Source: Alphaproteobacteria bacterium
GTDB lineage: Bacteria > Pseudomonadota > Alphaproteobacteria > SP197
DNA length: 64,000 nucleotides
NCBI GenBank assembly: GCA_965228895.1
Contig: OZ245842.1
Coordinates: 3,552,001-3,616,000 of the forward strand
Reading direction: 5' to 3'
Part shown: positions 420 to 22,531 of the stretch, one piece after another
How positions within the stretch are numbered: position 1 is the first letter of the stretch
Layout of the letters: each line of letters begins with the position of its first letter
Position numbers and translations under genes: made by a program
Notes under the pieces: generated by a model
Told to the model about the DNA's origin: nothing
The model's input: only the letters and a program-made list of their open reading frames with translations
The model's database searches: none

Positions 420-1073
420 ATGCTGAAGGTCTGGGGACGCGCGACATCGTCCAATGTGCAGAAGGTCATGTGGGCGATCGGCGAGCTTGGCCTTGACCAC
501 GAGCGGATCGATCTGGGCGGACCCCATGGCGGTCTCGACACCGACGCCTACGGCAAACTCAATCCCAACCGCCGCGTGCCAACCCTGGAAGATCGCGGCC
601 GCGTGATATGGGAATCGAACGCCATCGTGCGCTACATCGCCGCTCAGTATGGCGCCGGCAGTCTGTGGCCTGAGGATCCGGGCGAACGTGCGCTGGCCGA
701 CATGTGGATGGACTGGGCGGCGACGACGATCCGCGACGACTACGTCACCGTTTTCTTTGGCCTGGTGCGTATCCCGCCGGAACATCGCGACATGGATGCC
801 ATCAACAAGGCCATCGTGCGCCTGAACGGAATCTACGCCAAGCTGGATGCACACCTGGCCGGCCGCGACTTCATCGCCGGCGACCGCCTGACCATGGGCG
901 ACATTCCCGCCGGCATGACGCTGTTCCGCTATTTCGACATGCCGCTCGACCGCCCGTCCCTGCCCAATCTGGAGGCGTGGTACGCCCGGCTTCAGGAACG
1001 GCCAGCCTATCGAGAGCATGTCATGGTGAGTTACGAAAGCCTGCGCAACGACACGATTCCGCAAAAGGACTAG
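420..1073 (+). CDS. Glutathione S-transferase (GstB/YliJ-like)
   Basis: WGRATSSNVQKVMW, LNPNRRVPTL, WESNAIVRY, GDRLTMGDI; GGAG RBS. Confidence 0.93.
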   Translation: MLKVWGRATSSNVQKVMWAIGELGLDHERIDLGGPHGGLDTDAYGKLNPNRRVPTLEDRGRVIWESNAIVRYIAAQYGAGSLWPEDPGERALADMWMDWAATTIRDDYVTVFFGLVRIPPEHRDMDAINKAIVRLNGIYAKLDAHLAGRDFIAGDRLTMGDIPAGMTLFRYFDMPLDRPSLPNLEAWYARLQERPAYREHVMVSYESLRNDTIPQKD

Positions 1074-1386
1074 GACAACTGTGGCGTGGCGTGGCGCGCC
1101 GCGATCCCGCCGGCGCTGCTCGAGACACGGGCACGCGTCATACGTGACGGCACCGATGCTTCGCTATGGAACGACCTTGCCTCAGAGATCACGGTCCTCG
1201 CCCGGTTGGCCTGAACCAAGATCGATCGTGGTCACGCTCAGGTCATAGGCTTCCGGCACAATCGTCTGTCGGTACTTGTTGGTCGGGCCTTCGTTGGGAA
1301 TAGCCGGCCGCATAGCCAACGCCTTCGTGTTGCGGGCACGACGGTGACCGGCCAGGATGGCGAGGAGACTTCAGGGGTTCCAGATC

Positions 1387-2424
1387 ATGCCGCTTTTGAC
1401 AACGACCATCGGCGCCTTTCCCAAACCCGACTACGTGCCGCGTCGCGCCTGGTTTCATGACGTTGCGGCGGTCGGTGAAGCAGATAGCGAAGGGCTCAGC
1501 GACGACGACATCCGCGCCATCCATGACCGCGCCACCGCTGACGTGGTGACCGCGCAGGCGGATGCCGGCATCGACATTCCGACCGATGGCGAGGTGCGCC
1601 GGGAAAACTACATCCACTACCATTGCCGGCACATGACGGGGTTCGAGCCTGAGACGCTGACCGAGCGCGCCATGCGCAATGGCGCCTGGGTTGACGCGGT
1701 GCCGACCTTCACAGGCCCCGTCAAAGCGACCGAGCCGTTCTTGCCGCGCGACTACCGCATCGCCCAGGCGGCGACCGACCGGCCGGTCAAGATCACCGTG
1801 CCCGGCCCCCTGACCATTTCCGATTCAACAGCCGACCTGCACTATGACGATGTCCGGGCCTGGTGCCACGATCTTGCCGATGCCCTGAACGCCGAGATCC
1901 TGGCGCTCGCCGACGCCGGTTGCCGCCATATCCAGGTCGACGAACCACTGTTCGCACGCCTGCCCGACCAGGCCCTGGATTATGGCGTCGAGAACCTGGA
2001 ACGCTGCTTCCACGGCGTGCCCAAGGGTGTGACACGCACCATGCACATGTGCTGCGGCTACCCCGACAAGCTGGACGAGACCGACTATGTAAAAGCCGAC
2101 CCTGAGATCTATCAGAGGTTGGCCGGCGCACTTGACGCCGCCGCCATCGACGCCGTGTCACTGGAGGACGCCCACCGGCATAACGACCTGTCGTTATTGG
2201 AAAAATTCGGTTCGACCAAGGTTATCTTCGGCGCCGTCGAGATCGCCTCGAGCCAGGTCGAACCCATCGAGCAGATCCGCGCCAGGCTGGAAAACGCGCT
2301 GCAGCATATTGATGCCGACCGGCTGCTTGCCGCGCCCGATTGCGGCTTGATCATGCTGGGTCACGACCTCGCCGTCGCGAAACTCAAGAACCTCACCGAA
2401 GCCGCCCACAACATCCCAACCTAG
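1387..2424 (+). CDS. Cobalamin-independent methionine synthase II family (MetE C-terminal half only)
   Basis: TTIGAFPKP, DIPTDGEVRR, IQVDEP, HMCCGY and PDCG Zn-ligand motifs. Confidence 0.88.
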   Translation: MPLLTTTIGAFPKPDYVPRRAWFHDVAAVGEADSEGLSDDDIRAIHDRATADVVTAQADAGIDIPTDGEVRRENYIHYHCRHMTGFEPETLTERAMRNGAWVDAVPTFTGPVKATEPFLPRDYRIAQAATDRPVKITVPGPLTISDSTADLHYDDVRAWCHDLADALNAEILALADAGCRHIQVDEPLFARLPDQALDYGVENLERCFHGVPKGVTRTMHMCCGYPDKLDETDYVKADPEIYQRLAGALDAAAIDAVSLEDAHRHNDLSLLEKFGSTKVIFGAVEIASSQVEPIEQIRARLENALQHIDADRLLAAPDCGLIMLGHDLAVAKLKNLTEAAHNIPT

Positions 2425-2577: not shown

Positions 2578-2730
2578 ATGAGCAAGTTCTTCAAGAAGCA
2601 TGATGCGAGCCACGCTCGCAACACGGATAAATATGACCAGCGCGACCACAACGGGTCGAACGGCGCGACCGTGACCGGCGCCCTGATCGAGACCGTGTGG
2701 AACCCGTTCTTCGTGCTTAGCCGCCGCTAA
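2578..2730 (+). CDS. Small protein, 50 aa, unknown function
   Basis: AAAGGAG RBS directly upstream of ATG 2578; MSKFFKKHDASH...VWNPFFVLSRR* with genome-like codon use; below the ORF-track cutoff. Confidence 0.55.
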   Translation: MSKFFKKHDASHARNTDKYDQRDHNGSNGATVTGALIETVWNPFFVLSRR

Positions 2731-2752
2731 GGCACATACCGACCGCCACATC

Positions 2753-2874
2753 CGCATCCCAGCCAAGTGCAGCGCGGACCGGGATCCATGAACACGGAAT
2801 CCGACGCGTTCGAGACGACCGTGCGAATGCGCTGCTGTCCGCGTTCATAGGCCCCGGATTAAGTTCGGGGTGCG
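2753..2874. repeat. ~122-bp REP/MITE-like intergenic repeat, copy 1
   Basis: Aligns end to end with the reverse complement of 24601-24722; terminal hairpins, e.g. CCCCGGATTAAGTTCGGGG. Confidence 0.8.
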
Positions 2875-2878
2875 AGGT

Positions 2879-3622
2879 CTAGGTGATCTCGGCCACCGGC
2901 AGGATGACCTCTGGCGCATCCGTAAAGACGGCATCGATGCCGCGCGCGAAGAGTGACCGGGCGGTCGCCGCATCGTTCACCGTGTAACAGACGACCTGAC
3001 GCCCGGCCGTCTTGACCGCGCGGATTTGCCGATCGGTCACATGTCGCGCCGAAAAGTGGACGGAGGTGCAGCCGAGCAGGCTGGCGCCCAGCGACCATTG
3101 CCAGCGCGACCGGCGCCACACGTTAAGCGCGGTCGGCAGATCCGGACGCGCCTGACGGAAGCCTAGAAGACATCGCAAAACAAAGCTTGAGACCAGCGGC
3201 CGCGGCCGACCGGGCGGCCAGGCCTCGTCCAGCGTCGCGCCGACGACACGGCCTGTGTGCCAGGCTTCGCCCGGGTTGGCCTTGACCTCGATATTGGGCC
3301 GCATGCCGAGGTCGTGAATGACGTCCAGCGCTTCGGCCAAGGTCAGGATCGTCTCGCCGGCAAAGCGCGCGTCGAACCATGACCCGGCGTCCAGCCGTTT
3401 CAGTTCGTTCACAGTCTGGGTGACGACCGGACCGGTGCCATCGCTGGTGCGCTCCAACGTATCGTCGTGCACCAGAACCGGCACACCGTCTTTCGACAGG
3501 CGCACATCGAACTCAACCCATTCCAGGCCGAAGGCGGCCGCCGCCTTGAAGCCGGCGAGCGTATTCTCCGGCGCATGCGCCGCCACCCCGCGATGGCCGA
3601 TAACGCGCGGCAGTTCGATCAA
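2879..3622 (-). CDS. ugpQ: Glycerophosphodiester phosphodiesterase
   Basis: IGHRGVAAHAPENTL, EFDVRLSKDG, HDDTLERT, NIEVK, YTVND. Confidence 0.88.
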   Translation of the reverse strand: MIELPRVIGHRGVAAHAPENTLAGFKAAAAFGLEWVEFDVRLSKDGVPVLVHDDTLERTSDGTGPVVTQTVNELKRLDAGSWFDARFAGETILTLAEALDVIHDLGMRPNIEVKANPGEAWHTGRVVGATLDEAWPPGRPRPLVSSFVLRCLLGFRQARPDLPTALNVWRRSRWQWSLGASLLGCTSVHFSARHVTDRQIRAVKTAGRQVVCYTVNDAATARSLFARGIDAVFTDAPEVILPVAEIT

Positions 3623-3630
3623 GCAGAGCC

Positions 3631-4794
3631 TCAGGCGATCAGGGCGTCCTGGCCGCGCTTGGCCAGGCTGTGGGCAATAATCATGCGTTGGATCTCCGAG
3701 GTGCCTTCCCAGATGCGGTCGACGCGCAGTTCCCTATAATAGCGTTCGGCGACATTTTCACGCATGTAACCGCGCCCGCCGAAAATCTGCACGGCGCGGT
3801 CGGCGACCCGGTTCGCCATCTCCGAGCAATAGAGCTTCGCCATCGAGCACATGGCGTGCTGCACTTTGACGTCTTCCTTGTCATCGATGGCTTGCGCCAG
3901 GCGATAGACCATCAGGCGCCCTGCCCACAGCTCCGTTACACAATCGGCGAGCGGGAACTGGACAGCTTGGTTTTCGAAGATCGGCTTGCCGAACTGGACG
4001 CGCTCTTGGGCAAACGCCGTGGCCTCGTCGATCAAGCGGCTCGCCGCGCCGCAGCAGCGCGCCGCGATGCCCAGACGCTCCTGGCGGAACCACTCGTACG
4101 TCCAGGTGATGCCGTTGCCCTCCGGGTCGATCAGGTTGTCGGCAGGCACCTTCACGTCCGAGAACTGCATGATCAGATGGTGCGAGGGATAGGTGTGGGT
4201 ATAGGCGGGTGTGCGCACCGTCTCGACGCCGGGCGTATCCTTGTCGAGATAGAAGAGCGCGTGCTGACCGTCCTCAAGCTTCGCCTGGAAGATAATGATG
4301 TCGGATCGGTTGGCGCCGGTGACGTGCCACTTCAAACCATTCAGCACATAGCCGTTGCCGTCCTTCCTGGCGGTTGCCTCGATCGCGTCGACATCGGACC
4401 CCGCGCCTTCCTCCGTGATCGCGTAGCACTCGTTCTTCGCGCCGGTGAGAAGGTCCTTCACGTAGTGCTCCATCTGATACTCGGTCGCGGTGTGCAGGAG
4501 AAACGGCGACATGTCGTGATAGCACCAGCCGAGCCCGTTGGTGGTGCGGCCGATCTCTTCTTGGATGACGGCGATCTCGATCATCGAGAGTTCGGCGCCG
4601 CCATGCTCTCTGGGGATCGACGGCATGAAGAGACCCATCGCTTTGGTCATTTCCTTATGCTTGGCGCGCACGTCCTCGGGGATCGCGCCGTCGTTCATCT
4701 CGGCATGGACTTCCCAGGGAATGAGCTCGCTGTCGACAAAGGGCCGCAGTTTCTTTTGCCACGCGCGGGCGGACTCGGGCAGCGGATAGGACAT
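3631..4794 (-). CDS. Acyl-CoA dehydrogenase
   Basis: AITEEGAGSD, RVQFGKPI, VQIFGGRGY, RIWEGTSEIQR. Confidence 0.95.
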   Translation of the reverse strand: MSYPLPESARAWQKKLRPFVDSELIPWEVHAEMNDGAIPEDVRAKHKEMTKAMGLFMPSIPREHGGAELSMIEIAVIQEEIGRTTNGLGWCYHDMSPFLLHTATEYQMEHYVKDLLTGAKNECYAITEEGAGSDVDAIEATARKDGNGYVLNGLKWHVTGANRSDIIIFQAKLEDGQHALFYLDKDTPGVETVRTPAYTHTYPSHHLIMQFSDVKVPADNLIDPEGNGITWTYEWFRQERLGIAARCCGAASRLIDEATAFAQERVQFGKPIFENQAVQFPLADCVTELWAGRLMVYRLAQAIDDKEDVKVQHAMCSMAKLYCSEMANRVADRAVQIFGGRGYMRENVAERYYRELRVDRIWEGTSEIQRMIIAHSLAKRGQDALIA

Positions 4795-4841
4795 GGTTCG
4801 CGCTCCTTGAGAGACGTTCGGTCAGTTCTCGTGTTTCGCGG

Positions 4842-6698
4842 CTACTCTGCGGCGTTCGCGAAGCCCTTCGCAAGCCGCGCGTTAACCTCGGCGACCGTTT
4901 CGTCGGCCGGCGGTGTCTCGAGCGACGCAACAGGCAGGCGCGCGCGAACCTGGTTGTGGAAGGCGGCCAGGCACACCTCCTTCTCGGAAAAGTAGCCGGT
5001 CGTGTAGGCGCCGGTGCCAAGGCCCTCCTGCACGCGCAGGACAAGCTGATCGTCCTCGTTCTGGACCTGACTGTTGATGCGGCTGTTGAGCCAGCGGCAC
5101 GCCTTGACCTCGCGCCGGTCATCGGCCAGCGCATAGTTGCGCGACCGCAGTACGCTTCTGCCCGGGCCTAGGGGCACGACCTGGAAGAAACTCACCTGGT
5201 CGGGGTAGATATCAAACGCCTGGTTGGGAAACAGGCTGTAATAGCTCCACGACCTCTGACGATCGGCTGGCAGGTGATCGAAGCGCGGCAGGTTACGCAT
5301 ATAGAGACCTTCCGCCCACTGGCGCGACGCCTCGTCGACCATGACCGAATGGGCCCGGGATGTCGCGTGTTCGTCGGTCGCAACCCAATAGTTCGAACCG
5401 AACATGCGGTAGAGACCGGGATGGCCGACATTGATGTGATAACCCTCCAGGTAGTTATCCATCATGTTCTTCCAGTCGACGTCGATCGGCGCGCCCTGCC
5501 AGCACGGATCGACCGGATGCATCTCAGCCAACCGATAGGGCGCCAGCTCGTCTTCGTAAGCGGCCAGCAGTTCGCCGACACGCGGGCCGCCGTCATCGCG
5601 CGCGCGCACAAAGACGAAGCCGTTCCACAAATCCATCTCGACCGGTTTCAAACCGAACTTCGTGATGTCGAGATCGGGAAACGTGTCTTTTGCCGGCATC
5701 GCCTTGAGGCTGCCGTCATAGGCATAGGACCAGCCGTGATAGGGGCAGACGATGTTGAAGCGGTTGTTGCCCTGGCGGCCCGGACACAGGCGCGCTGCGC
5801 GATGGCGGCATACGTTGTGGAAGGCGTTGAGGTCGCCCTGTTTGTCGCGGATCACGACGATGCGGCGGTTGGCGTAGTCGAGGGTCAGGTAGTCGCCGGC
5901 CTTTTCGAACTCTCTTCGATGGCCGACGATCTGCCAGGTCGTGTCCAGCAGATGGTCCATCTCCAGATCGAAGAAGCCTTCGTTCTTGTAGGTCCAGGCC
6001 GGCAGCGTCTTCGTCGCGCCTGCCGGTGACTTGGCAGGTGTGGCCGGGCGCACCGCCGCAAGCTCGGTGACCGAACCCGTCACGTCATCATTGAAGTCAT
6101 CGGGGAAGAATGCGGCGAGCACGTCGATGATCGCCCGGCGTACGTCGGTACGATCGTAGCTCTCGCCATAAAACAGAATGTCATACTGAAAGCCCTGCTG
6201 CATGGCGCTGACCGTGCGCGCGATGCGCGTGGCGTCCAGATGATCCAATCCGCGTGCGTCGATCAGCGCGGCAATCTGAGACGTCAGCTCGTCGTGGAAA
6301 CGTTTGTCCATGGCGCCGCACAGTTCACGATAGGTCTCGCGACCTTTGGCTTCGGCCAGGAAGGCGACCCAGGCCGCGGTGCGGTCGAGCGTCCAGTTGC
6401 GCGGATCGAGATCGGCGTCGACCAGCGCCAGAACGCGCGCGGCGGGGTCGTCGCCGGCGGCGGCCAGACGCGTCTGCCAGATCGCGACATAACCGTCAGC
6501 CAGGTAGCGCATGGTCTCCAGGAACAGCGCGTCCTTGCTGTCGAAGTAGAAGCCGACAATGCCGCGCGACAGGCCGGATTCGCGCGACACGTCGCTCAGC
6601 GTGGTGCGGGCGTAGCCCTGTTTGCTGATGGCGCGAATGGTGGCGTCGATAAGCTGCTGGCGCCGTTCGTCCTTGCGGTCGCGGGTGGTGTCGTCCAT
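4842..6698 (-). CDS. Fusion: N-terminal BetI/HpbR-like TetR regulator plus Rieske non-heme iron oxygenase alpha subunit (betaine/choline monooxygenase-like)
   Basis: HTH RRQQLIDATI...GLSRGIVGFYFDSKD; Pro/Ala linker; Rieske ligands CRH...CPYHGW; mononuclear Fe motif NYLEGYHINVGH and NED; one uninterrupted ORF. Confidence 0.88.
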   Translation of the reverse strand: MDDTTRDRKDERRQQLIDATIRAISKQGYARTTLSDVSRESGLSRGIVGFYFDSKDALFLETMRYLADGYVAIWQTRLAAAGDDPAARVLALVDADLDPRNWTLDRTAAWVAFLAEAKGRETYRELCGAMDKRFHDELTSQIAALIDARGLDHLDATRIARTVSAMQQGFQYDILFYGESYDRTDVRRAIIDVLAAFFPDDFNDDVTGSVTELAAVRPATPAKSPAGATKTLPAWTYKNEGFFDLEMDHLLDTTWQIVGHRREFEKAGDYLTLDYANRRIVVIRDKQGDLNAFHNVCRHRAARLCPGRQGNNRFNIVCPYHGWSYAYDGSLKAMPAKDTFPDLDITKFGLKPVEMDLWNGFVFVRARDDGGPRVGELLAAYEDELAPYRLAEMHPVDPCWQGAPIDVDWKNMMDNYLEGYHINVGHPGLYRMFGSNYWVATDEHATSRAHSVMVDEASRQWAEGLYMRNLPRFDHLPADRQRSWSYYSLFPNQAFDIYPDQVSFFQVVPLGPGRSVLRSRNYALADDRREVKACRWLNSRINSQVQNEDDQLVLRVQEGLGTGAYTTGYFSEKEVCLAAFHNQVRARLPVASLETPPADETVAEVNARLAKGFANAAE

Positions 6699-6753
6699 GG
6701 CCGATCTTCTCATGAATGGGAGTTTCTAAGGTGGTTGGAGGCTACCACAGGAG

Positions 6754-6773
6754 TTGGCTGAACGTCCAGCCAA
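6754..6773. promoter_or_regulatory. BetI-type operator palindrome
   Basis: TTGGCTGAAC-GTCCAGCCAA, a 20-bp dyad with 1 mismatch, in the divergent promoter region; the TGAACGTCCA core resembles BetI boxes. Confidence 0.7.
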
Positions 6774-6918
6774 AACTTGTCTGAAGGTTCAAAAGCGGCA
6801 CTTGTGAAGCGAGACGGTAAGTCTCTTTACATGTCACTCACGGGGTTCAGACTGCGGGTTACGGTTGTCGCCGCCGCCGGTGACGGCCGCCTAAAAAGCA
6901 AACATGGAGGCTGCCGTG

Positions 6919-8043
6919 ATGAGGATGGAACTCTCAGAATTTAAAGACCGACTCGCGTCGGGTTCGCTGACACGCCGCGAGATCAGCAAGATCCTGGCTT
7001 CGGTCGGTCTGGTGACGGTGTCGATGCCGGTGATCAAAAACGCCGCCCACGCGGCACCGACGATCCAGGTGTTCACCTGGTCGGGTTATGACGTGCCGGA
7101 GATGCACGGCGCCTATACCGAAGCCTACGGCGCCTCGCCGGAATTCCTGTTCTACGCCGACAACGACGAGGCGATCGAGAAGGTGCGCGCCGGTTACGCG
7201 CCCACCCTGGTGCAGCCGACCAGCTATATGATCGGCCGCTGGCGCGATGCTGGCTTGCTTGTGCCGATCGACACCTCAAGGCTCTCTTATTATCCCGACG
7301 TCTTCCCTCAGCTCACCGGCATCGGCGCGTTGAGTCATGACGGTCAGACCTATGGCGTACCGTTGGCCTGGGGCAACAGCTCGGTCCTGTTCCGCAAGGA
7401 TCTGGCGCCGGAATATGTCGACAATCCGACCTGGGAGATCCTTTGGGATCCGAAATATGCCGGCCGCCTCGCGCAGCGCGACTCGATGGATGCCGGCGTT
7501 CTTGAAGCCGCGCTGATCCTGGGCATCGAGGATCCCTACAACATGTCGGATGCGGACCTCGAACGTGTCCGCGAGAAGCTGGTCGAGCAGCGCCCGCTGC
7601 TTCGTTACTACTGGAACAGCCAGGCCGATGTTGAGCAGGCGCTCGCGTCGGGCGAGATCGTCGCCGCCTATGCCTGGAACGACGCCTACGCGTCCTTGAA
7701 GCGCGAAGGCCATGACGTCGGTTACATGATTCCGAAGGAAGGCATCCTGACCTGGGTCGACACGACGTGCATGATCAAAGACGGTCCAGGCGACGAGGCC
7801 GAGGCCTATGACTTCATGAACGCACTGATCTCGCCGGAGACCGGTGTCTTCCTGATCGAGGAGTACGGCTACGGTTCGGCCAACGCCAAGTCCTTCCCGC
7901 TCGCCAACCAGGAACTCCTGATCGAGCTCGGCATCGAAGATCCCGACAAGGTTCTGGAACTCGGCGAGTTCTTCGACGAGTGGAACCCGCAGGTACGCGA
8001 AAAGGCGAACATCATGTTCGAAGAGGTGAAGGCCGGCTTCTAA
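6919..8043 (+). CDS. PotD/PotF-family ABC substrate-binding protein, probable Tat export
   Basis: LTRRE twin-arginine signal; FTWSGY, PLAWG, AYAWN, PKEGILTWVD. Confidence 0.88.
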   Translation: MRMELSEFKDRLASGSLTRREISKILASVGLVTVSMPVIKNAAHAAPTIQVFTWSGYDVPEMHGAYTEAYGASPEFLFYADNDEAIEKVRAGYAPTLVQPTSYMIGRWRDAGLLVPIDTSRLSYYPDVFPQLTGIGALSHDGQTYGVPLAWGNSSVLFRKDLAPEYVDNPTWEILWDPKYAGRLAQRDSMDAGVLEAALILGIEDPYNMSDADLERVREKLVEQRPLLRYYWNSQADVEQALASGEIVAAYAWNDAYASLKREGHDVGYMIPKEGILTWVDTTCMIKDGPGDEAEAYDFMNALISPETGVFLIEEYGYGSANAKSFPLANQELLIELGIEDPDKVLELGEFFDEWNPQVREKANIMFEEVKAGF

Positions 8044-8076
8044 CTCGCCGGCCAACCCTTCGTTCAACGCCCGCAA

Positions 8077-8114
8077 GACCCCGCGGCCGAAATGGTCGCG
8101 GGGTCGTTCTTTTT
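8077..8114 (+). terminator. Intrinsic terminator
   Basis: GACCCCGCGGCC-GAAAT-GGTCGCGGGGTC followed by a T run. Confidence 0.8.
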
Positions 8115-8185
8115 CGGATGCGCCCGTGTGCGCGAACCTGCTATCAGGCGCGGCCATTTGCGGCTTAGCTTCAGGAACAACGCCC

Positions 8186-10099
8186 ATGACCGGACACCGT
8201 CTCGACCCTCTGTTGACGCCGCGCTCGATCGCGCTGGTCGGCGCCTCCGACCGGACCGGCACGGTCGGCCATGGCATGGTCGCCGGCCTCAAGGACGCCG
8301 GCTTCTCCGGCCCGCTCTATGCGGTCAACCCGAAGTATGACGCGGTCCAGGGCGTCCCCTGCTTTGCGTCCCTGACCGACCTGCCGGAGCCCGTCGACCT
8401 GGCGGTGCTCGGCGTCAACTCGATCCGCATTGAACAGCAGATGGCCGACGCCATCGCGCTCGGCGCACGCGCGTGCGCGATCTTCGATAGCTGTTATCTG
8501 GACGACGAGACCGATCGCGGCCTCCTGAGGCGCCTGCGCGCGATGGCGCGCGAGGCCGACATGCCGGTCTGCGGCGGCAACGGCATGGGTTACCTCAACA
8601 TGGAGGCCTGGCTGCCCGTGACGATCTATAACGCCGTGCCGAAGATGAAGCGCGGCGGCAACGTCACCTTCATCACCCATTCGGGCACGGTGTTTTCAGA
8701 GATCGGCCTCAACGACCCGCGTTACGCCTGCAACCTCATCGTCTCGTGTGGCCAAGAGATCAACGGCACCATGGCCGACTACATCGATTATGCACTCGGC
8801 CTTTCGTCGACGCGCGTCATCGCGCTTTTCATGGAGGCCGCGCGCGATCCCGGCGCCTTGACGGCCGCGCTCGACAAGGCGCGCAAGCAAGGCGTGCCCG
8901 TCGTTGCTATGAAGGTCGGGCGCACCGACCTTGCCGCCGACTATGCTCTCGTCCATTCAGGCGCCATCACCGGCGACGACGCGGTCTACCAGGCCGTGTT
9001 CGACCGCTACGGCGTGCTGCGCGTCGACACCATGGATGACATGGCGAACCTCCTGACTTTGCTGTCGAACCCACGCGATGTCGCCGACGGCGGTCTTGCC
9101 GCCGTGCTCGATTCCGGTGGCGAACGCGAGATGCTGGTCGATCTTGCGGATACAGTGGGCACGCCGTTGACCACGCTGTCGCCGGCCACCTGCGAAGCGC
9201 TGCGCCCGCGCCTGCATCACTCGCTCGAACCGGTCAACCCTTTGGACGCCTGGGGCACCGCCGACAACTACGAAGAAGACTTCGAAGAGTACCTGGCGGT
9301 GATGGCGGGCGACCCCGGCACCGCGATGGTCGTCTTCTGCGGCGACATGACATGGAGCCCGAACGTCAAGGAGGGTTACCCCAAGGCCCTGGTCGAGGCG
9401 ACAAAGCGCACCGACAAACCGGTCGGCGTGCTCATCAACATGCCGACATCCGGTTTCATGGAGGTCGGTCTGGAGATGGCCGAGGCGGGCCTCGTGGTGT
9501 TGTCCGGCACGAAATCGGGCCTGACCGCCTTGCGCCATGCCATGACCTGGCGCGACCGTGACAGCCACACGCATGACGCCGGCCTCGAGGCGGCCGATCC
9601 GGCTATCCTAGAACGGTGGCGCGAGAAGCTCGCCTCGGGCGCGCGACCCAGCAACGAAGACGCCCTCGCTCTTCTGGCCGATTTCGGTGTCGCGGCATTG
9701 GCTGGTGCGACGCCTGCCGGCGATCATCCGCCGCTCACCTTTTCGATGATCCGCGATGATCAGTTCGGCCCGGTTGTGACGCTCGCCTTTGACGGCGCGT
9801 TGGGTCGCGCGACAAACGACACGCGCCATGCCCTGCCGTCGCTTGGTCCTGACGCCGCGCGGCGCCTGATCGCGAGCCTTTGCCTGCACCGCCTGCTAAG
9901 TGCCGCCGATGGCCAGCCGGACGGACCGGTGGGCGCTTTGGCCCGGGCATTCTCCGCCTTCTCCGCGGTTGTCGCGGCTCTCGGCGAAAGCCTGAATGGT
10001 CTCGATGCCCATGGGATCATTGCCACACCCAATGGCTGCACGGTCGACAACGCCAACCTTGGCCTTCGTCAATCCGGCGAAGCGTCTGAATCCGCGTGA
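8186..10099 (+). CDS. NDP-forming acyl-CoA synthetase family protein with reduced ATP-grasp region
   Basis: PRSIALVGAS, YAVNP, GGNGMG, KVGRT...HSGAITG, NPLD, DDQFGPVV. Confidence 0.85.
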   Translation: MTGHRLDPLLTPRSIALVGASDRTGTVGHGMVAGLKDAGFSGPLYAVNPKYDAVQGVPCFASLTDLPEPVDLAVLGVNSIRIEQQMADAIALGARACAIFDSCYLDDETDRGLLRRLRAMAREADMPVCGGNGMGYLNMEAWLPVTIYNAVPKMKRGGNVTFITHSGTVFSEIGLNDPRYACNLIVSCGQEINGTMADYIDYALGLSSTRVIALFMEAARDPGALTAALDKARKQGVPVVAMKVGRTDLAADYALVHSGAITGDDAVYQAVFDRYGVLRVDTMDDMANLLTLLSNPRDVADGGLAAVLDSGGEREMLVDLADTVGTPLTTLSPATCEALRPRLHHSLEPVNPLDAWGTADNYEEDFEEYLAVMAGDPGTAMVVFCGDMTWSPNVKEGYPKALVEATKRTDKPVGVLINMPTSGFMEVGLEMAEAGLVVLSGTKSGLTALRHAMTWRDRDSHTHDAGLEAADPAILERWREKLASGARPSNEDALALLADFGVAALAGATPAGDHPPLTFSMIRDDQFGPVVTLAFDGALGRATNDTRHALPSLGPDAARRLIASLCLHRLLSAADGQPDGPVGALARAFSAFSAVVAALGESLNGLDAHGIIATPNGCTVDNANLGLRQSGEASESA

Positions 10100-15490: not shown

Positions 15491-17236
15491 TTGGGGTTGG
15501 TGTCGTTGAGATCGGATATCTACACCAAGTCGCCGCCGCGCGCACGATTGGCGCTGGCGGCGATCGCCGTTGCGTCACTGCTGCTCGCAGCGTGCAACAA
15601 ACCGCTGGGTGATTTTCACGATTCCGATGCCGGCCTGACCAAGGCCGACTACGAAGACATCATCGGCAGTGCGGCGACCCCGCCGGACAGCAGCGCCGTG
15701 CTGGAGCCAGAAGCGCCACCGATCCCGGACCTGATGCCGGCGCTCGTCGCGCCAGTGCCGCCGGCCGGGCCGGAAAACCGCCTGGTATCGATTTCCGTCG
15801 TCGACACCGTGCCGATCCGAGACGTCCTGATCGAATTGGCCAGGGCGGCCGAGGTTGACCTGGAACTCGATCCCGCAATCGAGGGTGGGATCATCTTCAG
15901 CGCCCAGAACCGGCCCTTCATCGAGGTCATCGACCGCATCTCGGGCATGGCCAACCTGCGCTACGAGTACAAGGGCGGCATCTTGAGGATCGAAATCGAC
16001 CGGCCCTATCACGCGACCTACAAGGTCGAGCATCTGGCCGCCGCGAGGAGCGCCACCAGCTCCGTCGACATCTTCACCGACGTCTTCTCGGCGGTCGGTG
16101 ACAACTCCATCAGCAACGGCTCGGCCGCACGTATCGAGCAGGTCACCGAGAACGACTTCTATGGCGAGCTGGCGACCAATGTGCGTCAGATCCTGACCAA
16201 TTCCTCGCCGTCCGAGGAAATCGAAGAAATCCAGCTCGCTTCGGTCCAACCGACACTGGACGGTGAGGGCGAGGAAATCACCGATGCGGTCGCAGAACCG
16301 GTCGAGGACTTCTCCATCAACCGCCAGAGCGGCCTGCTTTCGGTTTACGCGACCCAGCGTCAGCACCGCCTGGTGCAGGACTATTTGCGCGAACTGATCA
16401 TCCGGTCGTCGTCGCAGATCGTGGTCGAGGCCAAGGTGTTGGAAGTCCAGCTGAGCGACGAGTTCCGCAGCGGCGTCGACTGGAGCGTGGTGGTCGGTCT
16501 GTTGGGCGGCAATGCCGGTTTCCTGCTGAACACCGGCATTGCCAACATCCCCAACAACGCGCCGGATCTGGCCCAGCTCAGCTTCGTCGGCGGCGATGTC
16601 GACGCGGTCGTCAACCTGATCAGCGAGTTCGGGACCACGCGTACGCTCGCCAACCCACGCCTGTCGATCACCAACAACGAGCCGGCGGTCCTGAAGGTCG
16701 CCCAGAATCAGGTCTATTTCACGCTTGAGTTCGAGACCAACACGACCCAGGGCGTCGTGACCGAGACCGTCGAGAGCACGGTCAACACGGTGCCGATCGG
16801 TCTCGTCATGCTGGTGCAGCCGTCGATCGATCTGGACACCAACCGCGTGACGTTGAGCCTGCGCCCGACCCTTTCCAACATCGTCGACTTTGTCGACGAT
16901 CCAGCGGTGTCGATCGAGTCCAACAACACCGTCATTTCGCAAGTCCCGGTCGTCGAGGTGCGCGAGTTCGATTCCATCGTCACCGCGCGGTCCGGCGAGG
17001 TCATCATTTTGGGCGGCCTGATGCAGGAGACCGCCCAGAACAACGAGGCCGGCCTGCCCGGCTTCCAGGACATCCCCTGGGTGGGCAACGCCTTCAAGTC
17101 GAATGACGACGATCGCGAGGTCCGCGAACTCGTCATCTTCCTGCGCGCCACCATCGTGCCCCAGCCGGTGCCGGCGCCTGCGGATATCGATCTCTACAAC
17201 ACCTTCGCCATCGACCCGCGGCCGCTCACATTCTAA
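15491..17236 (+). CDS. Outer-membrane secretin, MshL-like lipoprotein
   Basis: LLAAC lipobox; QIVVEAKVLEV, GVDW, NNEPAVLKV, ILGGLM, ELVIFL; start uncertain. Confidence 0.9.
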   Translation: MGLVSLRSDIYTKSPPRARLALAAIAVASLLLAACNKPLGDFHDSDAGLTKADYEDIIGSAATPPDSSAVLEPEAPPIPDLMPALVAPVPPAGPENRLVSISVVDTVPIRDVLIELARAAEVDLELDPAIEGGIIFSAQNRPFIEVIDRISGMANLRYEYKGGILRIEIDRPYHATYKVEHLAAARSATSSVDIFTDVFSAVGDNSISNGSAARIEQVTENDFYGELATNVRQILTNSSPSEEIEEIQLASVQPTLDGEGEEITDAVAEPVEDFSINRQSGLLSVYATQRQHRLVQDYLRELIIRSSSQIVVEAKVLEVQLSDEFRSGVDWSVVVGLLGGNAGFLLNTGIANIPNNAPDLAQLSFVGGDVDAVVNLISEFGTTRTLANPRLSITNNEPAVLKVAQNQVYFTLEFETNTTQGVVTETVESTVNTVPIGLVMLVQPSIDLDTNRVTLSLRPTLSNIVDFVDDPAVSIESNNTVISQVPVVEVREFDSIVTARSGEVIILGGLMQETAQNNEAGLPGFQDIPWVGNAFKSNDDDREVRELVIFLRATIVPQPVPAPADIDLYNTFAIDPRPLTF

Positions 17237-17326
17237 AATCACCATACGTCGGCGGGCTTTGTCTGGGGGTAGGCAAACGGCGGGTTTAGGGCGCATCGGG
17301 TTAAAGGGGAAGTTGGGTCTTAAGCC

Positions 17327-18094
17327 GTGTTTACGACGTTCCGCTATATCGTGCTGACGGCCGTGCGCGATCGGTTGCTGATCGGCGTGGCCATCGCGCT
17401 TGTGTTGGCCGCACTGTTGGGCGCTTTTCTGGGCGATGCGACGGCGCTGGAACAGCGCCAGATGTCGCTGGCCTATGCCGGTTTCACGACCCGGCTGATC
17501 CTGGCCATGGGGCTCATCCTGTTCGTTTGTTTTCACGTGCAGCGCAGCTACGACAACCGTGAAATCGACCTCATGCTGTCGCGACCGATCTCGCGCGCCC
17601 AGTTTGTCATCATCTATTGGCTCGGCTTCTCTGGCGTCGCCGTCATGCTGGCAGTGCTCGCGGCCATCGTGTTGCCGATTGCCGGTTTGCCCGATGGCGC
17701 CGGTCTGGTGCTCTGGGCGATCAGTCTGATTCTGGAATCCCTGCTTGTCGTCGCGCTGAGCCTGTTCTTTGCGCTGACGTTGAAAAGCGCCGTCGCGTCG
17801 GTGATGGCGAGTTTCGGGTTCTATCTGCTGGCCCGGATGACCGGTTTTCTGGTCAACATCGCGGAGTCCGATTGGGCGATCCTGCAGGAATCGGCGGTTG
17901 GATCGCTGTCGGCCTATGGCGTCTTCGTTTTCGGTTTCATCATGCCGCGTCTTGATCTGTTCGGTCAGACCTGGTGGCTGAACTACGGTATGCCCGACGA
18001 TCTGCCGATCGGGCTCATTGTCGGCCAAGCGGTCCTCTATACGGCGCTGTTGATTGCCGCGGCGATCTTCGATTTCCGGCGGCGGCGGTTCTGA
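17327..18094 (+). CDS. ABC-2 type permease (PilI-like)
   Basis: About 6 TM segments; LSRPISRAQF; C-terminal FDFRRRRF. Confidence 0.8.
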   Translation: MFTTFRYIVLTAVRDRLLIGVAIALVLAALLGAFLGDATALEQRQMSLAYAGFTTRLILAMGLILFVCFHVQRSYDNREIDLMLSRPISRAQFVIIYWLGFSGVAVMLAVLAAIVLPIAGLPDGAGLVLWAISLILESLLVVALSLFFALTLKSAVASVMASFGFYLLARMTGFLVNIAESDWAILQESAVGSLSAYGVFVFGFIMPRLDLFGQTWWLNYGMPDDLPIGLIVGQAVLYTALLIAAAIFDFRRRRF

Positions 18095-18096
18095 CC

Positions 18097-18822
18097 ATGG
18101 CGCAGCGTCTGACCCTTGCCGTGATCGTCCTGCTGCTGGCGGGCCAGCTTGCGCTCGCCACCCAGACGATCGGCCGCCACGATTATCACGACCCGCTGAC
18201 CATGGCGCCGCCGCGCCAAGTCGCCAACGTGTTGGGTTTGGGGGACGACCAGTTCTTTTTCCGCCAGGGCGTTCTCCATATCACCCATGCCGGCGCCACC
18301 GGCGGCGAGACGATCTACCTGCGCGATTTCGACTATGATGCTCTGGTCTCGTGGCTGATCCTGCTCGACGAACTCGACCCACGCTCCGGCGCCGCCCCGT
18401 TTCTGGCGGCCTACTGGTACGGCCGCACGCCGGTCGTCGCCGACGCGGCCTTGATGGTCGATTACCTGGAAGCCCGCGCGCTCGCGGACCCCGAAACCGG
18501 CTGGCGTTGGCTGGTCGAGGCCGTCTATCTGGCGCGTTACCGGCTGAACGACGTTGATCGTGCCCTCGCGCTGGCCGAGTTGGCGGCCGACGGAAAGATC
18601 GAAAACGCGCCGTTTTACGTGCAGCACCTGCCCGCCTTCATTCAGCTCGATCTCGGCGAACGCGATGCGGCGCTCGTGTTGCTGCGGGCGTTGTTGGAGG
18701 AGAACCCGGACCTGCCGGAAGATGAGCTCAATCTGTTATTCTTCATGATCGACCGGATCGAACGCGACGGAAGCGACGCCGCCGCACCCGACACGACATC
18801 CGGCGAAACGGACGGAACATGA
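18097..18822 (+). CDS. Membrane-anchored helical/TPR-like pilus-associated protein
   Basis: N-terminal TM; LDELDP; Trp/Tyr-rich helical repeats; cotranscribed with the permease. Confidence 0.6.
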   Translation: MAQRLTLAVIVLLLAGQLALATQTIGRHDYHDPLTMAPPRQVANVLGLGDDQFFFRQGVLHITHAGATGGETIYLRDFDYDALVSWLILLDELDPRSGAAPFLAAYWYGRTPVVADAALMVDYLEARALADPETGWRWLVEAVYLARYRLNDVDRALALAELAADGKIENAPFYVQHLPAFIQLDLGERDAALVLLRALLEENPDLPEDELNLLFFMIDRIERDGSDAAAPDTTSGETDGT

Positions 18823-19919
18823 ACGACATTACACTCTCGCTCTCGCAGATCCTGCAGCTCGTCGGCGTGGTGCAATGCGTTTACGTCATTGCCCTGACGC
18901 TGGTGCGCACCGACGACTACCGTTTCGCCGCCCTGCCCGTGCTGCTGTTCGCCGCCATCGGGCTGAGTTTTGCCGTTCAGTTGGTGATGACGCTGACCGA
19001 TCTCGGCGAAAGCCCGTTCTTGAACGGTGTCTATCTGTTTGTCGAAACCTCGATACCGCCACTGATGTACCTGATGGTGATCGAGCTGGTGAAACGCCGA
19101 ATCCCAGCATCGCCCCATTGGTTGATCCTGGGCTTGCCGCTTCTGGCCGTGCCGGCGATCAACGTTGCGGTACAGGCTGAGTCCGTTTGCCTGGGAGGGG
19201 ACGGCAGTTTCTGTGTCGATCCCTACCCGCTGTTTGCCCTGTTCCGCGTTGTCGCAGGCGTCGCGATTCTGCTGCTCTTGCTGGTAGTTGTCTCACGGGA
19301 TCTCAAGACTGTCCTGACCCAGACCATGGGCAAGGAGAAGTATTGGATCATCATCGCGCTGATCGGCGCCATCATCGCCTTGATGGCCGACAATCTGCTG
19401 AGCGTCTTCGGCATCTTGAACGAAAGCGAGTCTGTCTTCGTAGCCACAGTGCTGGAACTGACGCTGGTCTACCTGCTGATCTCGTCGCTGTTCCGCGTCT
19501 ATGGCGGCGCCGTCACGATCCGCACAAATCGGGACAAGGCACGCGACGGCGAGCGCGAGCCGCTCAACGATGATGAGATTAAGCTGGTCGAACGCATCAA
19601 CGAGTTGATGACGCTCGACAAGGTCTATCAGGAGGCATCCTACAGCCGGAAGGATCTGGCCCAGGAACTGACCATCGCCGAACACCAGTTGTCGCGGATC
19701 ATCAATACCGGTTTCGCCATGAGCTTCAGCGACCTCATCAACACCCACCGGGTAGAGGAGGCAAAGTATCTGCTGCGCACCACCGAAGAACCGGTCAGTT
19801 CCATCGCCTTCGACGTCGGCTTCAACAGCCTGGCATCGTTCAACCGCGTGTTTCGCAAGGTGACCGATCAGACCCCGACAGCGTTTCGCCAGAATGGTGG
19901 CGAGGCACCGACCGCGTGA
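18819..19919 (+). CDS. Membrane-embedded AraC family regulator
   Basis: About 6-7 N-terminal TM segments; C-terminal LSRIIN...IAFDVGFNSLASFNRVFRKVTDQTPTAFR. Confidence 0.92.
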   Translation: MNDITLSLSQILQLVGVVQCVYVIALTLVRTDDYRFAALPVLLFAAIGLSFAVQLVMTLTDLGESPFLNGVYLFVETSIPPLMYLMVIELVKRRIPASPHWLILGLPLLAVPAINVAVQAESVCLGGDGSFCVDPYPLFALFRVVAGVAILLLLLVVVSRDLKTVLTQTMGKEKYWIIIALIGAIIALMADNLLSVFGILNESESVFVATVLELTLVYLLISSLFRVYGGAVTIRTNRDKARDGEREPLNDDEIKLVERINELMTLDKVYQEASYSRKDLAQELTIAEHQLSRIINTGFAMSFSDLINTHRVEEAKYLLRTTEEPVSSIAFDVGFNSLASFNRVFRKVTDQTPTAFRQNGGEAPTA

Positions 19920-20279
19920 TCCGGATTTGCCGACGGCATCTTGTTGCCAGCCTATCCTGTCGATCGTAGTAGATTCTCGGCTTTTTCGACTAACCTTCTG
20001 ATTCAACGCTGAATCTTGTGCACCGCAGCATGGGAACTCGGCCCGTTCCCATGCCAATTTAGAGCTGGAACTCCTCAATCTGTAAATCTGACGCCGCATG
20101 ACGCCAGATAGCGAAGACCCCCCAAAGGATTAGCCCTAAAGAGTAGGTCAGAGGAGAACGAGAGCGTTGCGTCTGTGCCACTTTGGGACAGCCGCGGATC
20201 GAGCAAAGCGCGATCGGCTTCGTATCACAATGAAACAGCCGGCGAGCCGGCAGACGGACCAACGCGAGGATCCAGAACA

Positions 20280-20942
20280 ATGCAGGGTAACGTGGGTACA
20301 AACAAACACAGCTCCGAACGCGGCTTCACGCTGGTCGAGCTTTCCATCGTTCTCGTCATCATTGGCCTGTTGATTGGTGCTGTCCTGAAGGGGCAGGAAC
20401 TGATCGAAAGCGCGCGGCTGAAATCGCTGATGACGCAGATAAACAGCTACAAGACGGCGACCCAGATCTTCAAGGATCGCTATGGCTCGCTGCCCGGCGA
20501 TTTCGACGAAGCGACCACCGTGCTGAACGCGTCGGCCAACGGTGATGGTGACGGCATCATCGACGGCAATGGCGGCAACGGCGAGGGCCCGCTCTTCTTC
20601 GAGCATCTGGTCCGTGCCGAGCTCATTTCCGGCGTTTCGGTCAACGATCCGATCCCCGACAGCAAGGCCGGCAACGGTCAGGTCCAGGCCGACAACGACG
20701 ACGTCAACCAGGGCTCGCAAGACACCAACTTCTTCCGCGCCGGCGGCCTGAACGGCGTCGCCAGCACACGCGACATCCTGACCGGCGCCCAGGCGGGCGA
20801 GCTGGACAACAATTTCGACGACGGCAGCGGTATCACGGGCGATATCCAGACCGAAGGCGGCAATGACTGCCGGACCAATGCCGGCGTCCACAACTTCACC
20901 GACGGCGATGTGGCCTGTGTCTTCTTTGTGAAGATCGAATAG
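20280..20942 (+). CDS. Type IV pilin (probable major pilin)
   Basis: G|FTLVELSIVLVIIGLL class III signal with E5; LPGD; C-terminal Cys pair; own RBS and terminator. Confidence 0.9.
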   Translation: MQGNVGTNKHSSERGFTLVELSIVLVIIGLLIGAVLKGQELIESARLKSLMTQINSYKTATQIFKDRYGSLPGDFDEATTVLNASANGDGDGIIDGNGGNGEGPLFFEHLVRAELISGVSVNDPIPDSKAGNGQVQADNDDVNQGSQDTNFFRAGGLNGVASTRDILTGAQAGELDNNFDDGSGITGDIQTEGGNDCRTNAGVHNFTDGDVACVFFVKIE

Positions 20943-20964
20943 GCCGCCCGACCATGACGGATAG

Positions 20965-20996
20965 AGGGCCAGCCGGCTTGCCGGCTGGCCCTTTTT
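20965..20996 (+). terminator. Intrinsic terminator after pilin
   Basis: AGGGCCAGCCGGC-TT-GCCGGCTGGCCCT followed by TTTT. Confidence 0.88.
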
Positions 20997-21166
20997 CGTG
21001 CGCACCGGCAACCAACCTAGCCGCTTGCGGCGAGTCGCAAAAGAGTGCAGAATTACAGGCTGTTATCGGGGAGTCTACGACTGAGACTCGAAGTATCGGC
21101 GGCAAACCACTGATGGCCGAACAACCGGGGTTGGGCGAGCGCTAAGGCGCGACGGAAGCTGATCAG

Positions 21167-22531
21167 GTGAGCATCCTTTACAAGGCATTATCGAAGGCCG
21201 CGCGCGAGAACGCCGAGCAGGCGCAGGACGCGCCGCTGGTGCTCGACGACGACATCGGCCACGACCCCGGCAGCGCCTTCGACGACGCGACCTATCGCGA
21301 GCCACGCCGGCGCCCCTGGGCGTTGCTGGGCTTGGCCGGCGTTGTCATCGCGGGCTGCGTCGGCGGCTACGTCTATCTCACCTCACCGGAAGACGATGAT
21401 GTCATGGTCAACACCGGCGGTGAGATCGTCGACTTCTCCAAACAGAACCAGACCGCCGACAACGACGAACCCGATCTGCCCACGGCCGCTGCAGCTGACG
21501 ATGCCGTGGACGAGATGATGGTCGAGGTTGTCGAAACGGACGAAGCCGCCGATCCGAACATGGCGATGGAACTTGCGCCAGAGGATCCGGCAGCCACGGT
21601 CTCGACCGATGACACGGCGACCACCGCGCTCGATATCGTGCCGGCGGCCTCGTTGGATGCTGTCAACGCCAGCGGAAACGCCGCCGAGGTCGCCGAAATC
21701 ACCGAAACGGTTAGCGAGACCTCAGCGGAAGGCCCCGCCGACGCGACCGCGGCCGTCAACGGCGAGACCATTGAGGAAACCCTGGCGCGGCTCAGCACCG
21801 AACGCGGCGGCGATGACCTCGCCGCGCCCATCGAGATCGACCGCACGCCCGAAGCAGCCATGGAAGCCGCGATCGTGGCCGAAGCCGACAGCACCGTATC
21901 AGCCAGTGACACGACCGCCGCCGAAACCACCGTCGAATTCACCATCGACGCCGAAGGCTCCAGCAACCGGCAGAAGTTCGAGGCAGCCTACGCCGCGCTT
22001 CAGGCGGGCAACGCGGAAGCTGCCATGGATCTCTACATGGACGTGCTGATCGAGGAACCGGACAACCAGTTCGCCCTGTTCGGCTTGGCCTCCACCCTGC
22101 AGCGCATGGGTTGGCTGGGCGAAGCCCGAGCCACCTATGAAGAGTTGCTGGCGATTGACCCGAACAACCGCGGCGCGCTCACCAACATGATGTCCCTGAT
22201 CGCCCAGGAAGCGCCCGATCAGGCGCTTGCCAACCTGCAGCGGCTCTATGAGATCAACCCGGGATTCAGTCCGATCCCCGCGCAGATCGGCCTGCTCTAT
22301 GCCGATCTCGGCGATTACGGCGAAGCCGTGCGTAACCTGACGCTCGCCATCGACATGGAGCCCGACAACATGAACTACGTCTACAACCTCGCGATCATCC
22401 ACGACCGGCTCGGCCGGCACGGCGAAGCCCAGGCGCTCTATGAACGGGTGCTGGAGTTTTCCGAGTATCGCGATGTCAGCGTGCCCGTCGCGGCGATCCG
22501 CGAACGCGTGTCCTACCTGAAACGATTGTAA
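21167..22531 (+). CDS. MshN-like TPR protein with TM anchor and long acidic linker
   Basis: N-terminal SILYKAL motif; TM; D/E/A/T-rich linker; about 5 TPRs (YNLAIIHDRLG). Confidence 0.75.
   Translation: MSILYKALSKAARENAEQAQDAPLVLDDDIGHDPGSAFDDATYREPRRRPWALLGLAGVVIAGCVGGYVYLTSPEDDDVMVNTGGEIVDFSKQNQTADNDEPDLPTAAAADDAVDEMMVEVVETDEAADPNMAMELAPEDPAATVSTDDTATTALDIVPAASLDAVNASGNAAEVAEITETVSETSAEGPADATAAVNGETIEETLARLSTERGGDDLAAPIEIDRTPEAAMEAAIVAEADSTVSASDTTAAETTVEFTIDAEGSSNRQKFEAAYAALQAGNAEAAMDLYMDVLIEEPDNQFALFGLASTLQRMGWLGEARATYEELLAIDPNNRGALTNMMSLIAQEAPDQALANLQRLYEINPGFSPIPAQIGLLYADLGDYGEAVRNLTLAIDMEPDNMNYVYNLAIIHDRLGRHGEAQALYERVLEFSEYRDVSVPVAAIRERVSYLKRL

Follow-up and report, generated by a model that had tools for sequence, protein, structure and literature searches.

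A predicted TetR repressor–Rieske oxygenase fusion with a conserved operator-like dyad in an alphaproteobacterial genome

PutA, BirA and NadR are repressor-enzymes, in which one polypeptide combines a DNA-binding repressor with a pathway enzyme and represses its own gene region. In PutA, a ribbon-helix-helix domain is joined to a flavoenzyme, and the catalytic state of the latter (proline oxidation) drives the switch. Repressors of the TetR family are dimers. The oxygenase subunit CntA, a Rieske protein, is described as an alpha3 trimer (PMC7948474). In the current study, a 64,000-nt stretch of an alphaproteobacterial genome (G000, positions C1:3552001-3616000; hereafter the window) was found to carry a gene in which a BetI-type TetR repressor is followed, in the same reading frame, by a complete Rieske oxygenase alpha subunit. 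Both halves come from well-known families, and it is their covalent union that appears to be undescribed.

The minus-strand frame is open across 4842..6713, giving a protein of 623 aa from the first ATG (6713) and of 618 aa from the second (6698). The 618-aa form agrees with the copy in the database, P0002, which has the same length and the same sequence as the query, and with the N-termini of the orthologues. Residue numbers given here are those of the 623-aa form; 5 is subtracted for the 618-aa form. Four Pfam domains, each scoring above its gathering cut-off, lie within this single open reading frame (ORF):

4842..6698, minus strand: the fused gene, 618 aa plus stop (ORF listing, domain and strain comparison)
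6516..6653, minus strand: TetR_N helix-turn-helix, residues 21-66 (PF00440, 46.7 bits against a cut-off of 24)
6105..6446, minus strand: BetI-type ligand/dimerisation domain TetR_C_6, residues 90-203 (PF13977, 48.5 bits against a cut-off of 27)
6015..6077, minus strand: Ala/Pro/Thr-rich flexible linker, about residues 213-233 (pLDDT about 42)
5679..5939, minus strand: Rieske [2Fe-2S] domain, residues 259-345 (PF00355, 73 bits; C302, H304, C323, H326)
4935..5486, minus strand: catalytic non-haem iron domain Ring_hydroxyl_A, residues 410-593 (PF00848, 121.3 bits; Y421, E423, H426, H431, D554)

The linker, SVTELAAVRPATPAKSPAGATK, is about 20 aa long, rich in Ala and Pro, and joins the TetR half to the oxygenase half. 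The PF00440 and PF13977 matches, both above gathering score, place the N-terminal half in the BetI-type subfamily of the TetR family. The C-terminal half has the CxH...CxxH motif and, in Ring_hydroxyl_A, the His-His-Asp triad of a Rieske non-haem iron oxygenase alpha subunit: the [2Fe-2S] ligands C302, H304, C323 and H326 are all there, as are the bridging E423 and the iron ligands H426, H431 and D554. The initial annotation, which described a single 618-aa ORF consisting of a full TetR, a linker and a complete Rieske alpha subunit, is confirmed by the ORF, the Pfam matches and the ligand residues. It had also pointed to an out-of-frame ATGATGA as a possible site of stop and restart; the motif is present at about 6085-6091, inside ...DDFNDDVT..., and causes neither in the ORF. 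No NCBIfam model scores the fused protein above its own cut-off, and relatives carry public labels as different as 'SRPBCC family protein', 'transcriptional regulator BetI' and 'Rieske 2Fe-2S domain-containing protein'.

The fusion is not an assembly artefact; it is a real, complete and conserved architecture. Among the 120 best relatives in a collection of 5.8 billion proteins, 110 (36-100% identity, 487-655 aa) have the same four Pfam domains, and the remaining 10 are oxygenase-only proteins. The relatives are therefore not all split genes. Contigs from an independent run (X3), deposited under a different study and organism label, cover 4842-6903 unbroken, with 48 substitutions and no indel. 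Thirty-two of the 40 substitutions listed for this strain are synonymous, including all seven in the TetR half.

Whole-genome searches place the fused gene in seven further genomes of the same family (G002, G003, G004, G006, G008, G010 and G011) and in one from another family of the same class (G227), while the copy in G001 is split over two contigs. A class-wide search, in which three candidates per genome were scored and which thus gives a lower bound, found it in at least three of 401 genomes (G000, G004 and G227). A locus search with the fused protein alone returned 10 loci, of which two are the contig-split G001 copy and the others are unfused relatives with 27-42% identity. Overall, the fusion is kept in more than 100 sequence clusters, from Alphaproteobacteria, Gammaproteobacteria and metagenome bins labelled Myxococcales, and it is a common architecture in environmental bacteria.

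Conservation was counted in an alignment (A2) of 109 fused homologues. All four Rieske ligands are present in every one, as is H431, with H426 in 102, D554 in 106 and E423 in 105. In the TetR half, the helix-turn-helix residues G33, T38, F57 and K60 are invariant (109/109), and in TetR_C_6 W115 is kept in 107, F118 and E121 each in 108, and Y128 in all. Pairwise identities of the TetR half and of the oxygenase half correlate (Pearson 0.77, Spearman 0.52; 5,886 pairs), indicating joint evolution of the two halves as a single unit.

Upstream of the fused gene, an inverted repeat lies in the region that separates it from a divergent gene:

6754..6773, minus strand: operator-like dyad TTGGCTGGACGTTCAGCCAA, whose core TGGACGTTCA resembles a BetI box, within the 205 bp between the divergent genes (dyad and motif scans)

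The dyad is 20 bp long, with perfect 7-bp arms and nine of its 10 positions complementary overall, and its proximal end is 55 bp from the ATG at 6698, in keeping with what the initial annotation reported. No dyad match was expected by chance (100 shuffles of the window). When TTGNNTGGACRTTCANNCAA was searched with up to one mismatch, this dyad was the sole match in the 5.53-Mb genome, and the regulon therefore appears to consist of one divergent promoter region. The betI-betT intergenic region of E. coli K-12 contains ATTGATTGGACGTTCAAT, which has an identical TGGACGTTCA core and which we take to be the BetI binding site.

Related dyads precede the fused gene in all eight other loci, at 53-69 nt from the start codon except in G003 and G010. 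In G002 an identical 20-mer is equally far from the start codon (65 nt to its centre); ATTGAATGGACATTCAAT lies 55-68 nt upstream in G004, G006 and G011, ATTGATTGGACACTCATTCAAT 53 nt upstream in G008, TTGCTTGACGTACAA(A/C)(C/A)AA 111.5 nt upstream in G003 and G010, and a weaker dyad, CTGAATGACCATTGAAT, 68.5 nt upstream in G227. Each is followed within about 8-15 nt by a CTAT/TAGNCT element resembling a -10 box, as judged by eye and unscored by any tool. A palindromic operator in the gene's own promoter region, kept among orthologues, is the sequence-level hallmark of an autoregulated TetR repressor. The BetI-box-like dyad is kept ahead of fused genes that are just 44-60% identical. This is good evidence for a functional TetR half that binds DNA and regulates its own gene, and it is sound to deduce that the divergent promoter region is autoregulated. 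The self-repression proposed at the outset stands to this extent, as a reading of a conserved and unique dyad, while DNA binding itself is something that we infer.

Within NCBIfam, the BetI models are the best regulator matches to the TetR half (6.6e-31). A VW.AFW.(E/Q)A...Y signature in the ligand domain is common to this half and to four stand-alone BetI-type paralogues in the same genome. G227 also has a separate BetI-type TetR, 36% identical to its fused TetR.

The closest sequences to the oxygenase half in the PDB are Stc2 (3vca, 2.4e-29) and CntA (6y8j, 3.6e-26), and a Foldseek search with the AlphaFold2 model gave target-normalised TM scores of 0.81-0.84 for CntA and 0.74-0.76 for Stc2. 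In a phmmer alignment, DNYLEGYHINVGHPG pairs with DNYMECYHCGPAHPG of CntA, so that Y421 corresponds to Y203 and E423 to E205. CntA Y203 is reported to be the cation-pi partner of the trimethylammonium group, and E205 to be the bridging glutamate of inter-subunit electron transfer (PMC7948474). The same paper states that the other group Va enzymes, choline monooxygenase and OxyBAC, likewise have an aromatic residue at the Y203 position and that Stc2 and GbcA/BmoA lack one (PMC7948474). The bridging Glu that marks group V is thus represented by E423 (Glu in 105 of the fused homologues, as above) and the aromatic residue that marks group Va by Y421, and the oxygenase half can be classed by these residues as a group-Va-like quaternary-ammonium oxygenase. 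At the cation-pi position the fused homologues have Tyr in 72 cases, Phe in nine and Asp in 28, and substrate specificities probably differ between subclades.

AlphaFold2 predicts two confident modules (mean pLDDT 93.5) with a pTM of 0.67; residues 213-228 are the sole internal stretch with a pLDDT below 50. The segment corresponding to F207-T236 is Ala/Pro-rich in the fused homologues and varies from 14 to 54 aa (median 26). A complex prediction between the TetR half (1-212) and the oxygenase half (234-623), run without controls, gave a score of 0.00 against a mark of 0.32 and has no bearing on contact. The simpler model is one of two autonomous modules, because the linker is predicted to be disordered and is of variable length and because the TetR half keeps its own ligand-domain motif.

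The genes on either side of the fusion are as follows:

3631..4794, minus strand: acyl-CoA dehydrogenase (ACAD), 47 nt downstream of the fused gene, with AAGGAG ahead of its ATG
2879..3622, minus strand: glycerophosphodiester phosphodiesterase (GDPD), last gene of the putative operon (NF006989, 250.8 bits against a cut-off of 264)
6904..8043, plus strand: PotD/PotF-like solute-binding protein (SBP_bac_8), divergent from the fusion (Pfam/NCBIfam)
8126..10099, plus strand: ADP-forming acyl-CoA synthetase with CoA_binding_2, Succ_CoA_lig and ATP-grasp_5 (Pfam/NCBIfam)

The ACAD gene is probably in the same operon as the fused gene, and neither of the two terminator-like sites in 2700-7000 lies between the fused gene and the ACAD and GDPD genes. 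Beyond the acyl-CoA synthetase on the divergent side there are TraB/GumN and SnoaL-like genes. Across the nine fused loci, ACAD recurs in seven, SBP_bac_8 in six, the ADP-forming CoA synthetase in five, and GDPD and TraB/GumN in three each. The G227 locus contains a full ABC transporter and a PurU-like formyltransferase, while the locus of an unfused relative in G049 contains GcvT-like, MTHFR-like and ACAD genes and two SBP_bac_8 genes. These neighbourhoods are contexts of methylated-amine breakdown. Taken together, the neighbours fit the uptake and breakdown of a quaternary or methylated ammonium carboxylate that would be activated with CoA and desaturated, and a compound of the gamma-butyrobetaine/carnitine type is the obvious guess for the substrate. 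Hydantoinase/oxoprolinase-like genes recur in G004, G006 and G028. Gamma-butyrobetaine, carnitine, choline derived from glycerophosphocholine and, with the hydantoinase-like genes in mind, N-methyl lactams were considered as candidates, and the neighbours single out none of them.

The initial annotation stated that the window has no reductase or ferredoxin gene. This was borne out for the profiles NAD_binding_1 (PF00175) and Fer2 (PF00111), which have no match in the window; glutathione-reductase-type ferredoxin reductases and Rieske-type ferredoxins were not part of the search. The G000 genome as a whole contains 46 Ring_hydroxyl_A matches (about 44 genes, one of them TetR-fused), a very large expansion of betaine-type Rieske alpha subunits, against three NAD_binding_1 and 12 Fer2 matches, all outside the window. 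The FNR/Fer2-type reductase candidates lie near C1:358.5 kb, 508.6-509.3 kb, 714.2-714.9 kb and 4057 kb. With about 44 Rieske alpha genes to three FNR-type candidates, reductases are presumably shared and encoded in trans, and the absence of a local one therefore carries little weight.

Some further features of these loci were recorded. The solute-binding protein at 6904-8043 is an orphan, having no permease or ATPase gene beside it; it is also an orphan in G002, whereas G227 has the full ABC transporter. Next to the GDPD end of the cluster are a GST gene (420-1073, plus strand) and a gene for a short MetE-like Meth_synt_2 protein (1357-2424, plus strand; 345-355 aa), whose synteny is kept in G002 (L027 4298-6163); this pair may supply a methyl-transfer step linked to the pathway. 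The ACAD (3631-4794, compared with L027 7618-8940) is 96% identical between G000 and G002 and the fused protein about 81-83%, from which the regulator-enzyme fusion appears to evolve much faster than the adjoining ACAD. In G003 and G010, the ORF after the fusion (L028 158-2536 and L032 11182-13497) encodes 772-793 aa with two complete ACAD repeats, and represents either an ACAD in tandem fusion or two genes that ORF picking merged. Further along, the window has a type II/IV-secretion- or pilus-like cluster with no relation to the fusion (15491-25529), which encodes a secretin, a TPR protein, an AAA_22 ATPase, a T2SSE-type ATPase and an AraC-type regulator.

When scoring is confined to the oxygenase part, unfused proteins (about 400 aa) come as near (47-53%) as the more distant fused ones. 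A FastTree phylogeny was built from 213 rows (114 fused, 91 unfused) and rooted on eight paralogues from G000, with P0002 and the partial P0102 (487 aa) left out. Four to five changes between the fused and unfused states suffice to explain it, one of which is the truncated P0013. Fused and unfused sequences interleave at depth, where the forks are weakly supported (25-56), and because unfused enzymes at 47-53% identity are interleaved with fused ones, the oxygenase half looks like an ordinary enzyme lineage. Seven unfused rows form one clade, and its members seem to be genes lying directly downstream of fusions (P0113, P0189, P0176, P0099 and P0122). Beside five unfused relatives (G049, G229, G028, G007 and G003-C79) no stand-alone BetI-type TetR gene was found, and in this small sample there is no ancestor with split adjacent genes. 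The downstream unfused gene in G008 contains one TGA; in G227 (L034 6985-9501) the alpha subunit is split by an rve-type insertion sequence (7759-8586) into a Rieske part (8632-9501) and a catalytic part (6985-7473). In G011 (L033 7446-8107) an inserted, toxin-antitoxin-like DUF433/DUF5615 pair separates the unfused Rieske alpha gene from the ACAD gene.

On balance, the fused gene probably encodes a 'sense-and-degrade' protein that represses its own gene and whose two modules are loosely tethered and work independently of each other. The BetI-type TetR module would dimerise and bind the single BetI-box-like dyad, which would overlap the promoter region of two divergent units, the fusion-ACAD-GDPD operon on one side and the binding-protein/acyl-CoA-synthetase unit on the other. 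A quaternary-ammonium ligand entering the module's own BetI-type pocket would release it from the dyad. The C-terminal alpha-only Rieske monooxygenase, similar to CntA and choline monooxygenase, would then oxidise the inducer or a closely related compound with the help of a reductase encoded elsewhere. The likely substrate would be a trimethylammonio-carboxylate of the gamma-butyrobetaine/carnitine type that is further handled as a CoA thioester. If a flexible tether alone joins the modules, the main effect of fusion may be to fix the repressor and the enzyme in a 1:1 ratio; it would also set the inducer-destroying enzyme beside the inducer sensor, allowing fast shut-off as the inducer disappears.

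This proposal builds on the architecture and its conservation, on cofactor ligands that are all intact, and on an operator and neighbours that are conserved; a number of points weigh against it. DNA binding, the ligand, catalytic activity, the substrate class, the operon structure and the benefit of fusion all enter it as properties that we infer. The TetR half falls short of the equivalogs for BetI proper (107.5 against 201.3 bits and 101.5 against 118 bits; TIGR03384 / NF001978), and the oxygenase half falls far below the GbcA equivalog (NF058607; 155.7 against 670 bits, E 1.2e-45). The Cys-X-X-Cys pair of CntA and Stc2 is replaced by G424 and I427; according to PMC10952381, such a pair occurs in 'some' group V members, and hence does not define the group. 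Among the fused homologues, Glu replaces H426 in seven of 109 and Asn replaces D554 in three, and together with the 28 that have Asp at the cation-pi site, the change of the first iron His to Glu means that part of the family may do something else; the altered sites suggest either changed chemistry or a sensory role in these subclades. At the operator, G003 and G010 have a dyad centre of 5 nt instead of 6 nt, and G227 has a poor dyad. A consensus sigma-70 scan of 2700-7000 gave no promoter-like site, where 0.9 were expected in shuffles, and the -10 and -35 elements are assigned by eye. Mounting TetR dimers on a Rieske trimer is geometrically awkward. Directly downstream of the fusion, an unfused paralogue with about 50% identity is present in five of the nine loci (G004, G006, G008, G011 and G227), which would allow the two copies to share the work, with the fused one acting chiefly as a sensor. 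Finally, P0208, a 237-aa metagenome ORF on a 9,022-bp contig, is 89% identical to the TetR half; its frame changes directly behind 'GATK' at the domain junction, and the ORF ends seven residues later. A sequencing error, a pseudogene and a natural split are all conceivable causes.

The initial annotation favoured a PutA-like trigger enzyme, in which the catalytic or redox state of the Rieske half (substrate, cluster or iron) is relayed to the TetR half and sets occupancy of the operator. That both functions reside on one polypeptide kept in more than 100 clusters, that the halves co-evolve, and that a dimeric repressor on a trimeric enzyme could make DNA binding dependent on assembly are all in line with it. 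A disordered linker of 14-54 aa is unfavourable for a fixed allosteric interface, though, and a pTM of 0.67 alongside a pLDDT of 93.5 indicates no confident interdomain packing. In addition, the W/F/E/Y motif shared with the four stand-alone BetI-type paralogues makes it plausible that the TetR half senses a ligand itself. The flexible and variable linker argues weakly against membership of this class, and signalling from turnover or Fe-S redox state to repression, not supported by these findings, seems unlikely.

A bolder variant, and in our view a decidedly unlikely one, turns the mismatch between dimer and trimer into the point of the fusion: TetR dimers would form only between trimers, so that occupancy of the operator would depend on assembly of the oxygenase. 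If so, the protein might form a hexamer with three TetR dimers, or open chains, and as assembly would need the Fe-S cluster and iron, the repressor would integrate inducer, iron/Fe-S status and enzyme abundance. Mixed trimers with a second, unfused alpha subunit could tune the number of DNA-binding heads per particle. This would be a control mode not known to have been described for TetR proteins or Rieske oxygenases.

It is also conceivable, though very doubtful, that the Rieske half has become a sensor derived from an enzyme, serving as a ligand-, iron- or oxygen-sensing or an oligomerisation domain while the unfused paralogue performs catalysis. The paralogue directly downstream in the five loci listed above fits this arrangement, as do the homologues with Glu at the first iron-ligand His or Asn at D554 and the presence of about 44 other Rieske alpha genes in the genome. 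There is no unfused paralogue at the fused locus in this window, or in G002, G003 and G010, however, and the ligands, the bridging Glu and the cation-pi Tyr are all intact in the window protein. Unfused enzymes nest among the fused ones in the tree, and the substitutions in the sister strain are mostly synonymous across the oxygenase half.

An artefact or pseudo-fusion, with two neighbouring genes joined through a frameshift or a faulty assembly, or with two proteins produced from the region in the cell, is scarcely credible. In its favour are the frame change in P0208 and the oxygenase-only call P0013 (372 aa, 1,708-bp contig), although the latter begins at an internal Met, that of LEMD, and has probably been cut short where its contig ends. 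Against it are 110 of 120 relatives fused, the fusion in nine genomes and a second strain's contig free of indels across the gene. Moreover, the oxygenase fold starts at a conserved TLPAWTY, and the first in-frame Met past the linker (M252) comes only after this start.

The initial annotation knew of no described example. Literature text searches for the fusion, for TetR-enzyme fusions and for a butyrobetaine/ACAD/Rieske pathway yielded no paper on the architecture, subscription journals and supplements being outside their scope, and the claim holds within these limits. Although TetR repressors and Rieske oxygenases have each been the subject of much work, their natural fusion seems to have escaped description. 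It offers a compact and testable case for distinguishing tethered modules from allosteric trigger enzymes, and poses the structural puzzle of a dimer mounted on a trimer. It may also mark an uncharacterised pathway for quaternary or methylated amines, running via CoA thioesters, in bacteria with dozens of such oxygenases; these amines matter to nitrogen and carbon cycling in the sea and in soil. A single-protein sensor and degrader with a defined 20-bp operator would be a handy part for synthetic biology.

The likeness to PutA, BirA and NadR is a broad one, namely a repressor and an enzyme in one chain. The folds are unrelated to those of PutA, and in the fused protein, where such coupling would be no more than hypothetical, the TetR half brings a ligand domain of its own and sits on a floppy tether. 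BetI, the choline-responsive TetR repressor of the bet genes, is nearer: it shares TetR_N and the BetI-type TetR_C_6, and the operator core TGGACGTTCA is identical to that of the E. coli betI-betT dyad. The fused protein differs in scoring below both equivalog cut-offs, in lying away from betA/betB and in being attached to an enzyme. For the oxygenase half, CntA (carnitine monooxygenase oxygenase subunit, group Va; PDB 6y8j, 6y9d and 6zgp) is the top structural match and shares the CxH...CxxH motif, the His-His-Asp triad, the bridging Glu and the cation-pi Tyr within a ...DNY(M/L)E.YH....HPG motif; as with CntA, no beta-subunit gene is found among the annotated neighbours. Identity in the structural alignment is 22-23%, the C206/C209 pair of CntA is G424/I427 in the fused protein, there is no adjoining gene for a CntB-like reductase, and a TetR repressor occupies the place of the first ~39 residues of CntA. 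The stachydrine demethylase Stc2 (3vca, 4qup) and the group Vb glycine betaine monooxygenase GbcA/BmoA are the best PDB and NCBIfam sequence matches and share the alpha-only Rieske fold; at the position of CntA Y203, where these enzymes have no aromatic residue (PMC7948474), the fused protein has Tyr.

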